64,000 nt of DNA, from positions 3,847,699-3,911,698 of the forward strand of contig OZ252030.1 in NCBI GenBank assembly GCA_965247305.1, in the 5' to 3' direction. Shown here piece by piece: positions 9,124-13,186 of this stretch (positions within the stretch are counted from its first letter, which is position 1; each line of letters opens with the position of its first letter). The DNA comes from Bryobacterales bacterium (GTDB lineage: Bacteria; Acidobacteriota; Terriglobia; Bryobacterales; UBA6623). The notes under the pieces were generated by a model. It was not told the origin of the DNA. It searched no databases and saw only the letters and a list, made by a program, of their open reading frames with translations. The translations under genes and the position numbers were made by a program.

Positions 9124-9244
9124 ATGAACCGCATAACGACTGCCACATCAGGAATACCGATCAAGGACTTCGCCAGCATGGCTGCGGCCATCCAGAAGGT
9201 CGAGTTCCGACCAATCGAGCTTGCCGCAGCGTTTCGGGACGCTA
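9124..9244 (+). other. displaced 5' end (41 codons) of the large repeat-protein gene, cut off by the IS630 insertion
   Basis: ATG at 9124 preceded by GGAAGGA. This frame joins in phase across the TA target site to the sequence upstream of the 10448 ATG with no stop (see finding). Confidence 0.6.
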
Positions 9245-10342
9245 GTGTCCTGTCTCTAAAGTTCGATTACAAAAGCGGGCGAGGGAAGCGAAGATTTGGT
9301 CGGCGGTTTTGGACCAGACGAACGGCTTGGAGTCGGCGTTGCTGAGTTGGATGTAATCCTCGATGGCGCGTTCCAACTCCGCTGTGCTGCGATGTACGCC
9401 GCGGCGAATCTGCTTCTGGGTCAGAGTGGCGAACCAACGCTCGACAAGGTTGATCCAAGACGCGCTGGTCGGCGTGAAGTGCAGATGGTAGCGCGGCCGT
9501 TTGGCCAGCCAACGCTGAATAATCTGGGTCTTGTGGGTTCCGTAGTTGTCGAGGATCAAGTGGATCTCGAGCGAGTCGGGGACCGCCTGGTCGATGGTGT
9601 CGAGAAACTTGCGAAACTCGACCGCGCGATGACGGCGATGACACTCGCCGATCACATGGCCGGTCTTGACATCCAACGCGGCAAACAGCGAGGTCGTCCC
9701 GTGGCGCTTGTAGTCGTGCGTGCGGCGCTCGATTTGTCCGGGACGCAGCGGCAGCAGCGGCTGCGTGCGGTCCAGGGCTTGGATCTGAGACTTCTCGTCA
9801 ACCGACAGCACCAACGCCCGCTGGGGCGGGTTGAGATACAGACCGACGATGTCGCGCACCTTCTCGACGAACAACGGATCTTGCGAGAGCTTGAAAGTTT
9901 CGCTGCGATGGGGTTGCAGCGCGAAGGCCTTCCAGATGCGCTGCACGCTGGAGTGACTCAAGCCACAGGTCTTGGCCATCGAGCGTGTTGACCAATGCGT
10001 GGCGTCGGGGGGCGTCGATTCCAGAGTGAGCGTGATGACGCGTTCGACCTCGTCATCGCTGACGCGCCGCGGCGTGCCGGGACGCGGTTCGTCGAGCAGC
10101 CCGTCGAGGCCTTTGTCGAGGAAGCGCTGGCGCCATTTGCCAACGGTACGGCGGGCCCAGCCGAGTTGGGCGGCGACGACGGTATTGTTGAGTCCGTCGG
10201 CGGCGAGCAGAATGGCCCTGGCGCGTTGGGCAAGAGCCTGCGCGGACTTGCGCCGTCGCGCCCAACTTTGCAGGCTCTCGCGCTCGGCCGGGTTGAGCTT
10301 GAGCGGTTTCAATTGAGGACCAGTTGTCGTCGTCTTCCCCAT
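9242..10342 (-). CDS. IS630-family transposase (HTH + DDE)
   Basis: 366 aa. The N-terminus has paired HTH regions. It has a [18 protein letters not shown] DDE_3 core. Homologous (about 50% identity) to the transposase at 27847..28962. Confidence 0.8.
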
Positions 10343-10400
10343 ATAGACATGGCGACAACAACCTGTTTAATGTTACGCGAACTTTAGATACAGGACACTA
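9243..10400 (-). mobile_element. IS630-family insertion sequence (copy 1)
   Basis: Perfect 12-bp terminal IRs: CTAGTGTCCTGT at 9242..9253 and ACAGGACACTAG at 10390..10401. Flanked by TA at 9243-44 and 10399-400. Single transposase ORF. Confidence 0.8.
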
Positions 10401-10447
10401 GTGCGATAAGCACGAACCGCGGGGTCAGTCTAGCCAGAGCGTTCGCA

Positions 10448-13186
10448 ATGACCATAAAAGAACCGCTCCAGCACCGCGAACTGTTCCAACGAGTCGCCCA
10501 GATGCCAGAAGCCGAACGGCGGACGTTGATCGTAGGCTACCGGAGAGCAGGCCAGCGCCGGGGGGTCGTGCATGCAATCAGCCAACTGCCTCGCGCGCAG
10601 GGCCGTACCTTGATGCGTGATCTGGTCAATAAGGAAGATGGCAAGCGTGATAAGAACGGACTCAAAGATGTCATGCTGTGGCTCCGAGATGCGGGTGCTG
10701 AAATCGACCGACTCAAGAAAGAAAGCACCGCAGCCCGTGACGACAACGGTACCGACTCGGCGGTTGTTGAGTTCTTTGAGGATGTCGCTGACGCCATCTC
10801 GGAGGCCGTCACCGCCGTCGTCGACGCCGTTGTCGACGCCGTCGGGACGCTGGCCAATGCCATTGCGGACGTGGTGAGCTGGGTTGCCGAAGAAATTGCG
10901 AACCTGGTTCACGCGCTCATCGAGGCCGGCAAGACGATCGGTGAGCTCCTCGTGGCCGCCCTCGAGACGGGATACCAGCTTGTCAAGAAAATCGTGAACG
11001 CCCTCGAGGAAATCGGGAAGGCGCTGTTCGATGTGCTCGAGGCTGCGTTCACGCTCGCCAAAGATTCACTTATAACCGTTCTCAAGGCAGTCGACCAGCT
11101 TGGCCGAACGCTGGGAGAATTGGTCTCATGGTTGGCGACCAAGACGTTTTCCATAATCAAGAAGGGCGTAGAAGCGCTGCTCGAAATAGGGAAGTCAGTC
11201 ATCAACCTCCTGGGAAAGGCGCTGGAGTTTGGCGCGACACTCGTTTTCAACACGGTCAAGGCCATGATCGAGATCGGCAAGACGGTGCTTGAAATCCTCG
11301 CGGTCGCCGTCACGCGTCCGGGTGACTTGCTAGACGCCGTCGTCGATTCCCTGGGCAGCCTTGGCAATACGCTTGGCGAGCTTTTCGACGAGGTCGTTGA
11401 TGCCGGGGCCGACTTCCTAAACGAGGTCGCCAAGGCCGCCGCCAACATCGGAACGGCGCTCGTCGAATTCACTGTCTACATCGCACAGTCTGCGGTGGAG
11501 ATTGCGACCGAAGTCATTCGCGGACTGGTTGCTGCGGGCAAAACGATTGCCGAGCTCGTCATCTCAATGGCCCAGCACACGGTCGCGGCGGTCAAAAAGG
11601 TTGTTGAAGCCGCCTTCGCAATCGGGGTGACCCTGGTCGGGCTGCTCCGCGACGTCGTGAACCTCGCTGTCGACCTGCTGCAAGAGGTCGTCAAAGCCGC
11701 TTTCGAGCTCGGCAAGACGGTGGTGGAGTTCACGGCCTCCCTCATTGAGTTCACCTACAAGACCGCAGCGCGCTTCATCGAGGCCGCACTCGAGATCGGC
11801 GTAACCGTGATTGAAATGATCGAGACCGTTGTCGAGAAAGGGTACTATGTCTTCCGAAAAATCGTAAACGGCGTCCTGCAGGCGCTGGGGCCGGTGGGTG
11901 ACATCTTCGAATGGCTTCTCGATCGTGCCGAGGATCTCGCGTCGGGCCTGTGGAGACAAACGGTGCTGGCCATCCGATACGTCAAGAAAAGCGTCACCGA
12001 GGCGCTCGACTGGGCCCTGGCGCAGGGTGCCGAGTTCTTCGACGCCATGCTCGCAATCGTCGAGGATATCGGCGAGACCATTTCAGAGGTGATCGAGTGG
12101 GCTCAGGCCGTCGGCGATGCTGCGCTGAAAGCGCTTGGCGAAGCAACCGTTCGCGTCGGCAACTCGGTCAGCTACGTGCTGTCATACCTGGAGGATGACT
12201 TCCTGCCCGGTATCCAGAAAGTGGTTGAGGGCGTTCTCGACGCAGGCTTTGCTGTCGCTGGACTCGTCACCTGGATGGCTGACCGTGCCTTTGAAACGGT
12301 CAAGGAAGTCGTCATTGCGGCGCTGGACTTCGGTGTCACGATTGGGACATTGCTGACAGAAACGATCAAACATCCGGGTCAGGCACTCGACAACCTGCTG
12401 CGTGCCATCGACGAAGCGGGCCAGACCCTTGGAGACCTCTACGAGGCCGTGATCGTCGAGACCGGCGAAGAGTTTGTTGAGGAGGTCACGATCGCACTCA
12501 ATCGACTTGGGAGAGCCGCCGGAGACATCCTCGATGGTGTTGCCGAGGCGGCCATGGGCGCCGTCGGCACCGTGATCGGAATCCTCGTTCGTCTGCTGGG
12601 CACCTACCGTCCGCTGAACGGCGACGAGCGCGCCGATGCCCAGATCGTGTACGGCAATTCCATCGACCTAGACACGGTCGGTATTGCAGTGGAAGACCCG
12701 CTGAACTCGATTATCTTCGGCGTCCAAGACTGGGTCAGCGGCAATCCCGACTCGCGCGCCTTCGTGACCAACACGTTGATCAACTTCGATGTCGACGACG
12801 GCATCACGCGGCACACGCTCATCCACGAACTGTGCCATGTCTGGCAGTTTAAGACAGATGGACCCGAGTACCTGTTGCAGGCCGTCAATGCTCAAATCAC
12901 CGGTGCGGGTTACAACTACGGGTATGACGAAACTCTCCCAGACATTGTCCTCACGATCGACTTTGCCGGAAACACTGACACAATAAACCAGGGTCGCGTA
13001 ACCGGGGAGGCAGGTCAGGATGACCTGAATGCCGCCGCCGGCAATTTCGATGCATTCAACCGTGAACAGCAAGGTCAGATAGCTATGCATTATTTCACCC
13101 GCCGAGTTCTGCTGGGGCAGGCCGCCACCCCCGCTGGCTACGCACCCTGGCAACCGTACATCGACGTGATCCAGGCGGCGGCATAA
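10448..13186 (+). CDS. large alpha-helical tandem-repeat protein with C-terminal HExxH (DUF4157-like) putative zincin domain
   Basis: 912 aa from the first ATG after the IS. The native gene probably starts at 9124. Residues roughly 110-710 form about 21 units of a roughly 19-aa repeat (A-L-x-E-I-G-K-T-V-x-E-L-V..). The C-terminal roughly 200 aa carry PLNGDERADAQIVYGNSIDLDTV...HTLIHELCHVWQF. Confidence 0.7.
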   Translation: MTIKEPLQHRELFQRVAQMPEAERRTLIVGYRRAGQRRGVVHAISQLPRAQGRTLMRDLVNKEDGKRDKNGLKDVMLWLRDAGAEIDRLKKESTAARDDNGTDSAVVEFFEDVADAISEAVTAVVDAVVDAVGTLANAIADVVSWVAEEIANLVHALIEAGKTIGELLVAALETGYQLVKKIVNALEEIGKALFDVLEAAFTLAKDSLITVLKAVDQLGRTLGELVSWLATKTFSIIKKGVEALLEIGKSVINLLGKALEFGATLVFNTVKAMIEIGKTVLEILAVAVTRPGDLLDAVVDSLGSLGNTLGELFDEVVDAGADFLNEVAKAAANIGTALVEFTVYIAQSAVEIATEVIRGLVAAGKTIAELVISMAQHTVAAVKKVVEAAFAIGVTLVGLLRDVVNLAVDLLQEVVKAAFELGKTVVEFTASLIEFTYKTAARFIEAALEIGVTVIEMIETVVEKGYYVFRKIVNGVLQALGPVGDIFEWLLDRAEDLASGLWRQTVLAIRYVKKSVTEALDWALAQGAEFFDAMLAIVEDIGETISEVIEWAQAVGDAALKALGEATVRVGNSVSYVLSYLEDDFLPGIQKVVEGVLDAGFAVAGLVTWMADRAFETVKEVVIAALDFGVTIGTLLTETIKHPGQALDNLLRAIDEAGQTLGDLYEAVIVETGEEFVEEVTIALNRLGRAAGDILDGVAEAAMGAVGTVIGILVRLLGTYRPLNGDERADAQIVYGNSIDLDTVGIAVEDPLNSIIFGVQDWVSGNPDSRAFVTNTLINFDVDDGITRHTLIHELCHVWQFKTDGPEYLLQAVNAQITGAGYNYGYDETLPDIVLTIDFAGNTDTINQGRVTGEAGQDDLNAAAGNFDAFNREQQGQIAMHYFTRRVLLGQAATPAGYAPWQPYIDVIQAAA

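Follow-up and report, generated by a model that had tools for sequence, protein, structure and literature searches.

We analysed a stretch of 64,000 nucleotides (the window) from an Acidobacteriota (Bryobacterales-like) genome, in which a gene of 968 codons is interrupted by an insertion sequence. The inserted element occupies positions 9245..10398 (1154 bp, minus strand), and its single open reading frame (9242..10342, minus strand) encodes a transposase of 366 aa. The transposase scores 277.1 bits against the NCBIfam model NF033545 (transpos_IS630, cutoff 100) and exceeds the cutoffs of the Pfam families DDE_3, HTH_32, HTH_29 and HTH_23. The element has the termini GTGTCC...GGACAC and terminal inverted repeats of 21 nt with 20 of 21 bases matching (9245-9265 and 10378-10398), which extend to 24 nt at 96% identity once the flanking CTA/TAG is counted in. 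It is bordered by a duplicated TA (9243..9244 and 10399..10400) inside a CTAG target, whose outer bases are the C at 9242 and the G at 10401. The first-pass annotation had delimited the element by perfect inverted repeats of 12 bp and a TA on both sides. The TA on both sides stands; the ends themselves lie further inward, as the two 12-mers (CTAGTGTCCTGT at 9242-9253 and ACAGGACACTAG at 10390-10401) each extend over the duplicated TA into one base of the flank.

Transposase type, inverted repeats, length, TA duplication and CTAG preference all confirm that the element belongs to the IS630 family. As in IS630 of Shigella sonnei (IS630/Tc1/mariner superfamily), the element is about 1.15 kb long, has short terminal inverted repeats and encodes just one DDE transposase with HTH domains at its N-terminus, and insertion takes place at the TA of 5'-CTAG-3' with a 2-bp TA duplication. 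For IS630 itself, a CTAG target and a duplication of 2 bp have been published (PMC2577343, Table 1, citing Tenzen and Ohtsubo 1991). The element differs from IS630 by its own termini and its host, and also by the end of its transposase gene: the final sense codon coincides with the last 3 nt of the element, and the TAG stop is borrowed from the target, being supplied by the duplicated TA and the flanking G.

Two independent copies of the element are found in the ENA metagenome contigs L005 and L006. Both are 99.7-99.8% identical to the element in the window, encode an identical transposase, and have the same ends, again flanked by c-TA...TA-g. This flank is shared by three of three insertions of the element as well as by a second IS630-family element in the window (27837-29001). 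The insertion site of the copy in L006 is present in the window without the element, with a single TA (28947-28950); the pair of filled and empty site therefore directly shows the excision rule of removing the element plus one TA. The exact transposase protein occurs on 5 contigs, among them the contig from which the window is taken, and this contig carries at least five variants of the transposase.

The element sits at the TA of a CTAG that spans codons 40 and 41 (GCT AGT) of the interrupted gene. The severed 5' end (9124..9244, plus strand) has codons 1-40 complete and codon 41 with its first base only. It is preceded by a Shine-Dalgarno-like GGAAGGA (9110..9116, 7 nt upstream of ATG 9124) and by a candidate native promoter, GTCACA-17-TATCAT (9033..9061, plus strand), a consensus match that is the only sigma70-like site returned by a strict scan of 8600-10700. 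On the other side of the element, the last two bases of codon 41 and the codons up to 56 (S-AISTNRGVSLARAFA; 10401..10447, plus strand) now form an untranslatable leader, followed by the intact gene body, an open reading frame of 912 aa that corresponds to native residues 57-968 (10448..13186, plus strand). Deleting 9245..10400 fuses the frame of ATG 9124 to that of ATG 10448 without a stop; the rebuilt junction reads ...TTTCGGGACGCTAGTGCGATAAGC... and the protein has 968 aa. Both the stop-free join and a native length of about 970 aa had been proposed from the first reading of the sequence, and the reconstruction bears them out: the rebuilt protein is covered over 100% of its length by homologues of 975-1046 aa. 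We note that an in-frame join is the necessary result of excising any insertion; it tests the reconstruction and is no feature in itself. In the present arrangement, the reading frame of ATG 9124 continues into the element and ends at a stop at 9343-9345 (73 aa). The frame of the body is closed upstream by a TAG at 10385-10387, and the next ATG, GTG or TTG in that frame is ATG 10448. The body can be translated only from this internal ATG, as had also been claimed.

The body retains all 74 invariant columns of an alignment of 13 sequences. In it, the remainder of an N-terminal helical domain is followed by a stretch of long helices, about 600 aa in length and reminiscent of tape-measure proteins, and by a C-terminal HExxH domain. 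In the AlphaFold2 (AF2) model of the protein, residues 1-148 form a confidently predicted helical domain of nine helices (pLDDT 75-88). The insertion falls within the helix of residues 31-43, and M57 at the end of that of residues 45-58; in the homologues, position 57 is occupied by V, Q, A, K, N, R, L or S and never by M. The helical middle is matched by PHROG tape-measure profiles (phrog_1272, phrog_305 and others, E-values of 2e-19 to 1e-9), a likeness to phage tail tape-measure proteins that is confined to repeat-like helices and may reflect helical-repeat composition only. A homologue in the JGI collection carries the name 'phage-related protein'. In contrast to tape-measure proteins, the fixed partners of the gene are a C25-like peptidase, an acyl carrier protein (ACP), a FabF-like ketosynthase (KS) and a small protein; a tail-gene cluster was found near none of the homologous loci, and ordinary chromosomal genes flank the module across phyla. 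In the C-terminal domain, H849, E850 and H853 are present in all 13 sequences, a feature shared with HExxH zincin-like domains such as the C-terminal metallopeptidase effector domain of VgrG2b (6h56). The match to 6h56, the only one in a PDB sequence search with this domain, is marginal and far from significance (E 0.014), and the annotated neighbours of the homologous loci examined include no T6SS genes. Pfam zincin families (DUF6782, SprT-like, M91) likewise remain below threshold against the protein (E 0.06-0.24). When the PDB was searched with the AF2 model of the whole protein, Foldseek returned generic long-helix matches only (SMC, MukB; E >0.07), and PADLOC returned only ZorA coiled-coil-like matches to the helical region, with no assignment to a defence system.

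The split gene normally heads a conserved module of five genes, encoding the repeat protein, the C25-like peptidase, the ACP, the FabF-like KS and the small protein. The taxonomic range of the module extends from Nitrospirales and Chloroflexota to Bacteroidota, Actinomycetota and Pseudomonadota. Conserved genes 3-5 are seen at no fewer than 15 loci, spread over many phyla, and wherever a homologous locus retains enough downstream DNA for a check, the repeat gene is followed by a homologue of the C25-like gene. In the window, the second gene is intact (13192..14118, plus strand) and encodes a C25/clan-CD-like cysteine peptidase of 308 aa. Its score against Pfam Peptidase_C25 (PF01364) is 22.8 bits at a cutoff of 23, all 17 homologues have the motif G-H175-G and C208, and a PDB sequence search with the protein gave no match. 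The remaining three genes are missing. Their place is taken by a 372-bp remnant of the 3' end of an IS3-family element (14241-14612, minus strand) and a full inverted copy of the same IS3 (14644-16216, minus strand; flanked by CTA/CTA). A further copy of this element (TGGAG...TGCCA; 7293..8865, plus strand) ends 258 nt upstream of ATG 9124 and is flanked by CTG/GAG, without a target duplication. The loss of genes 3-5, together with IS3 copies that bracket the locus, indicates that the locus is decaying. A tblastn search of the whole window for ACP or KS found none, nor was a remnant of the ACP gene found in 14119-14240. An inversion between the inverted IS3 copies, by which the ACP and KS genes might have been moved to the other side of the locus, is rejected: the left flank holds sulfatases, and the window holds neither ACP nor KS. 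The G+C content around the locus gives no signal of foreign DNA.

We propose the following course of events. IS3 elements would already have degraded the locus, removing the three downstream module genes, when the IS630-family element, which is active at present, inserted at the TA of the CTAG by cut-and-paste transposition and duplicated the TA. With the insertion, 927 codons would have been cut off from the first 41 and, with these, from the ribosome-binding site and the candidate promoter. A ribosome that starts at ATG 9124 would halt after 73 residues, and the body would be left with a start at the non-conserved Met57 without a Shine-Dalgarno sequence; according to the model, the N-terminal domain of a product starting there would have lost four of its nine helices. 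A start at Met57 only, lacking a Shine-Dalgarno motif and at the cost of four helices, makes a null or strongly hypomorphic allele the most likely outcome. We consider this account as a whole highly probable. The sequence shows the element with its exact ends, the target duplication, the restored frame and the homology of the severed N-terminus; the loss of function and the young age of the insertion are inferred. A recent event is suggested by the copies of the element that are 99.7-99.8% identical and share an identical transposase, and by the presence of at least five variants on the source contig. It is further suggested by the intact target duplication and by a gene body that is free of stops and frameshifts and keeps all family-invariant residues. 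The protein collection contains the transposase of the source contig and the C25-like protein encoded next to the split gene but not the 912-aa product, which would fit a deposited annotation that treats the gene as a pseudogene. No Shine-Dalgarno-like motif is found upstream of ATG 10448, and we note that many genes in the window are also without one, which makes its absence weak evidence.

The principal alternative is that the gene was not silenced. In this case, the 912-aa frame and the C25-like gene would be transcribed either from a promoter in the IS end or by read-through from the native one, and a truncated functional protein that starts at Met57 would now be made under regulation derived from the IS. 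The first-pass annotation had presumed a promoter in or at the end of the IS, and there may be one. A lenient scan gives a candidate outward-facing promoter, TAGACA-16-TTTAAT (10344..10371, plus strand), inside the IS end and 77 nt upstream of ATG 10448. With 10 of 12 consensus positions it resembles sigma70 sites and has the right orientation; only 4 sites in 64 kb are as good, and about 0.9% of local shuffles yield one. Many IS families are well known to provide outward or hybrid promoters (PMC9330008), terminator-like structures were sought in 8600-10700 with none found, and neither the body nor the downstream gene is damaged. Against this, the -10 hexamer of the candidate site lacks the conserved A at its position 2 (-11), a stricter scan does not report the site, and it was picked post hoc. 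Moreover, ATG 10448 has no Shine-Dalgarno motif and Met57 is not conserved, a truncation at this point costs a confidently predicted domain four of its nine helices, and a very recent insertion would leave the body intact as well. The intact state of the body and the downstream gene is equally expected under continued selection and under a very recent insertion. Taken together, we consider continued expression of a functional product rather unlikely. With respect to published cases of inactivation and activation by insertion sequences (PMC9330008), the locus is similar in that an IS in the 5' part of a coding region uncouples the gene from its promoter and start and carries a candidate outward promoter in its end. 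It differs in that the possible product would be N-terminally truncated rather than full-length.

A more far-reaching interpretation, to which we assign a distinctly low probability, concerns the cassette as a whole, which appears to be horizontally mobile and uncharacterised. It could represent a new kind of system, for example one in which a lipid-modified or lipid-anchored giant protein is processed by the peptidase, with the first two genes perhaps surviving here, as a truncated derivative of two genes, by means of an outward promoter borne by the IS630 element.

Comparison with homologues supports the claim that the 41 codons upstream of the element are the severed N-terminus of the 912-aa frame. 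Against a profile built from 12 homologue N-termini (query excluded), the 41-aa peptide scores 30.3 bits; 2000 shuffles of the peptide reach at most 13.2 bits (mean 0.15, sd 1.6), and other frames at most 0.6 bits. Five of the 12 homologues start at the alignment column of M1 (MNRI, MNKI, MAKI or MPxx), full-length representatives of the family begin at profile position 1, and tblastn matches more than 25 genome and metagenome loci from query residue 1 or 2. The alignment of the rebuilt protein with its closest homologues has no gap at the IS junction: the conserved motifs ELAxAF, upstream of the element, and LAxAYA, downstream of it, have identical spacing in both. The region of codons 41-56 also aligns, with L51 invariant in 13 of 13 sequences. 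An orthologue whose N-terminus departs from the 9124 frame had been named as evidence that would overturn the reconstruction, and the N-termini of the homologues instead agree with it. For the comparison with an uninterrupted gene or empty site, also suggested at that stage, no close intact orthologue or empty site of this particular insertion was found: the best identities are 61% in the protein database, 63% in GTDB genomes and 59% in JGI metagenomes, too distant (at most 63%) to provide an empty site at the nucleotide level. A search for syntenic relatives by way of the flanking histidine kinase gave a next-best match of only 72% identity and none that was informative.

It might still be argued that the frame at 9124 is a chance frame, that ATG 10448 is the native start and that the element landed in the upstream intergenic region, given that an unrelated upstream frame agrees with the body in one of three cases and that stop-free stretches are common at about 59% G+C. 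The profile score, far above all shuffles and other frames, the alignment of the 16 codons between the element and ATG 10448 with their invariant L51, and the fact that in every full-length homologue 56 residues or more precede the position of Met57 refute this reading and leave it virtually no probability. Equally negligible is an assembly artefact, in which a repeat was collapsed or misplaced: the genome contains several near-identical IS copies, the usual cause of misassembly, but the junctions bear the exact signature of transposition, a CTAG target with its TA duplicated, and the flanks rejoin without an indel into one conserved frame, which a misjoin would not give.

A coding region hit by an IS is a textbook case, and the event itself matters little. 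Its value lies in what the locus makes accessible. The reconstruction gives back the true start and the sequence of 968 aa of a gene that automatic annotation truncates or drops. The element is documented as presently active in an acidobacterial population, by three insertions, one pair of empty and filled site and a strict CTAG/TA rule. Finally, the split gene draws attention to a conserved five-gene module that is being dismantled here by IS630 and IS3 elements.

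The gene is broken at codons 40/41 by an IS630-family element of 1154 bp (9245..10398, GTGTCC...GGACAC). Its transposase (ORF 9242..10342, minus strand, 366 aa) scores 277 bits against NCBIfam NF033545 (cutoff 100) and carries DDE_3 and HTH domains according to Pfam. The exact ends of the element matter because the frame argument rests on them. The first-pass annotation had placed these ends at a pair of 12-bp inverted repeats. Both 12-mers, CTAGTGTCCTGT (9242-9253) and ACAGGACACTAG (10390-10401), are found in the window, but they do not mark the exact boundary, as each contains three bases outside the element: C + TA at the left end and TA + G at the right end. 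The inverted-repeat arms detected by a repeat finder reach 24 nt with 96% complementarity, and a search for the 21-nt terminal sequence returns only two sites in the window (zero expected), namely the two element ends. The target is CTAG, with the duplicated TA at 9243-9244 and 10399-10400. Insertion at the TA of CTAG with TA duplication is published IS630 behaviour (PMC2577343, Table 1, citing Tenzen and Ohtsubo 1991). The element itself supplies no stop codon for the transposase ORF: the last sense codon, CAC, is formed by the final three bases of the element, and the TAG stop by the duplicated TA and the G of the target (window 9242-9247, minus strand), an arrangement also seen at positions 4096-4101 of both L005 and L006, two ENA metagenome contigs with further copies. 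The preference for CTAG therefore guarantees termination of the transposase at every insertion seen.

These further copies (assembly ERZ26167216) are 99.7-99.8% identical to the element in the window and have the same termini and c-TA ... TA-g flanks within unrelated surrounding sequence, which speaks against ends located elsewhere. The exact transposase sequence occurs on other contigs, L005 and L006 among them, and the 8.55-Mb contig of the window encodes at least five transposase variants of at least 90% identity. The copy on L006 is inserted into a further IS630-family element (L006 1829-4154). In the window this second element (27837-29001, 1165 bp, 371-aa transposase, c-TA/TA-g flanks) is uninterrupted and 100% identical to the L006 version; the empty site is the CTAG at 28947-28950. 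With the site filled on L006 and empty in the window, insertion at the TA of CTAG with TA duplication is therefore directly seen. The same pair shows the element to be active in the population.

Removal of 9245..10400, that is, the element plus one TA, yields ...GAC GCT AGT GCG ATA AGC... within an uninterrupted reading frame of 968 codons that opens at ATG 9124, as expected from the stop-free, in-frame join to the 912-aa ORF and the native protein of about 970 aa that had been proposed. Frames agree by chance in one of three cases, hence the join by itself proves little. If the upstream ORF is the true 5' end of the gene, the join is necessarily in frame; 'in frame' is a check on the reconstruction and no feature in itself.

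The stronger evidence is homology of the severed N-terminus. The rebuilt protein has 13 homologues among 5.8 billion proteins, the eight closest of which comprise 975-1046 aa and are 50-61% identical (seven of the eight cover 100% of the query). In an alignment with 12 homologues (13 sequences), five homologues start at the same column as the window's MNRI, with MNKI, MAKI, MPSV, MPIT, or MPIA; the remaining ones are longer by a Lys/Ser/Thr/Pro-rich extension, after which NNRL or NNRI occupies that column. This extension (60-80 residues, probably disordered) is found in roughly half of the close homologues (P0002, P0003, and P0005-P0008; alignment columns 1-83) and is missing from the window's gene, P0001, and P0004. 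Conserved motifs stand on both sides of the insertion, (V/I)ELA(P/A)AF upstream and LA(E/R)AYA downstream; their spacing in the rebuilt protein equals that in its closest homologues, and the junction has no gap. Residue A36 hardly varies, and all 13 sequences share L51. Scored against a profile of the first 41 columns, built from the 12 homologues alone, the 41-aa peptide of the window reaches 30.3 bits, compared to a maximum of 13.2 in 2000 shuffles (mean 0.15, sd 1.6) and at most 0.6 for other frames of the same DNA. In tblastn, more than 25 loci from genomes and metagenomes match from query residue 1 or 2 onward, and full-length family representatives begin at profile position 1 in an exhaustive profile search. 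The upstream 41 codons thus encode the real N-terminus, and the original reconstruction is correct. A near-identical intact orthologue was not found (closest 63% in genomes, 61% in proteins, 59% in metagenomes), nor was an empty site for the insertion at 9245..10398 among the relatives searched.

The insertion is probably recent: the copies of the element are near-identical, at least five transposase variants exist, the target duplication is intact, and the 912 codons of the body are free of lesions, with all 74 family-invariant residues retained. It sets codons 1-41, together with a candidate native promoter (9033-9061) and the ribosome site GGAAGGA (9110-9116), 1.2 kb apart from the gene body. 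Translation from 9124 enters the element and ends at 9343-9345 after 73 aa. As the first reading had it, the body can start only at the internal ATG 10448 (Met57), the first start codon past the in-frame TAG at 10385-10387. No SD-like motif precedes this ATG, as is the case for several other genes of the window, and Met57 is not conserved (homologues carry V, Q, A, K, N, R, L, or S). An AlphaFold2 model from the 13-sequence alignment is of moderate confidence overall (mean pLDDT 66), with residues 1-148 forming a confident nine-helix domain (pLDDT 75-88). In this model helix 31-43 contains the insertion point, and four helices would be lost from a product starting at Met57. We consider the allele to be probably null in effect. 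The exact 912-aa product is not in a collection of 15 billion proteins, and the C25-like protein, transposase, histidine kinase, and SecA of the same contig are all present; this absence beside present neighbours suggests that the gene was annotated as a pseudogene on deposition.

A truncated protein that is made and functional is the less likely outcome. Expression of the gene from the IS end had been presumed, and a lenient scan finds a sigma70-like site there (TAGACA-16-TTTAAT, 10/12, 10344-10371, plus strand) directed towards the 912-aa ORF. The 64 kb contain just four sites of this quality, and one arises in about 0.9% of local shuffles; this candidate promoter was noticed post hoc and lacks the conserved -11 A. 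Another of the four sites (46431) stands just upstream of an ORF starting at 46474. No terminator-like structure was found between the native promoter and 10448. Low-level expression of a non-functional product appears improbable. The observation of an interrupted gene is confirmed, and its interpretation is supported except for the presumed use of a promoter at the IS end.

The gene is a member of an uncharacterised family, for which 191 clusters (at 50% identity) reach E 1e-30 or better in a profile search. The protein has three parts: it begins with the N-terminal helical domain, continues in very long helices over about 600 aa, and closes with a C-terminal domain (about 190 aa) in which an HExxH motif is invariant. 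The long helices match phage tape-measure profiles (E down to 2e-19) as well as Phasin_2 and the ZorA tail. For the C-terminal domain, structural clues are limited to a marginal match with the VgrG2b metallopeptidase effector domain (6h56, E 0.014); Foldseek with the whole model returned nothing informative. In at least 15 loci (among them L001, L003, L007-L016, L027, and L032) the genes downstream of the homologue stand in conserved order: first a C25/clan-CD-like peptidase, then an acyl carrier protein and a FabF-like ketosynthase, and last a small protein. The hosts of this module, which has no assigned function, include Nitrospirales, Chloroflexota, Bacteroidota, Actinomycetota, Pseudomonadota, and others. 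The G-H-G and Cys of the peptidase are invariant in 17 of 17 homologues. The window has the first two genes only (8866-14240); those for the acyl carrier protein, the ketosynthase, and the small protein are absent from all of its 64 kb.

IS3-family sequences, their right ends turned inward, enclose this two-gene remnant. On the left lies a full copy (7293-8865, flanks CTG/GAG, no target duplication), and on the right a 372-bp 3'-end remnant at 14241-14612 followed by an inverted full copy at 14644-16216 (flanks CTA/CTA). The two full copies are 99% alike, their outer flanks share the 19-mer TTTTATGAACATTGAGATC, and the arrangement resembles a composite transposon. The outer flanks contain sulfatase genes and a two-component system, and G+C is uniform over the region. 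By its SecA and histidine-kinase homologues, the window belongs to Acidobacteriota, near Bryobacterales. Mobile DNA is unusually plentiful in the window, which also contains a DDE_5-type transposase gene (44293-45669), a 365-bp repeat that adjoins the left IS3 copy (6900-7264 and 25034-25400, 83% identical), and a 180-bp repeat (35889-36070 and 47573-47754, 97% identical) that recurs at L006 4281-4462. The overall picture is an IS-rich chromosome in the course of dismantling a module that was apparently acquired horizontally. In itself the insertion is an ordinary gene disruption, and the element a new member of a familiar IS family; the uncharacterised five-gene module is the sole part that might repay more work.
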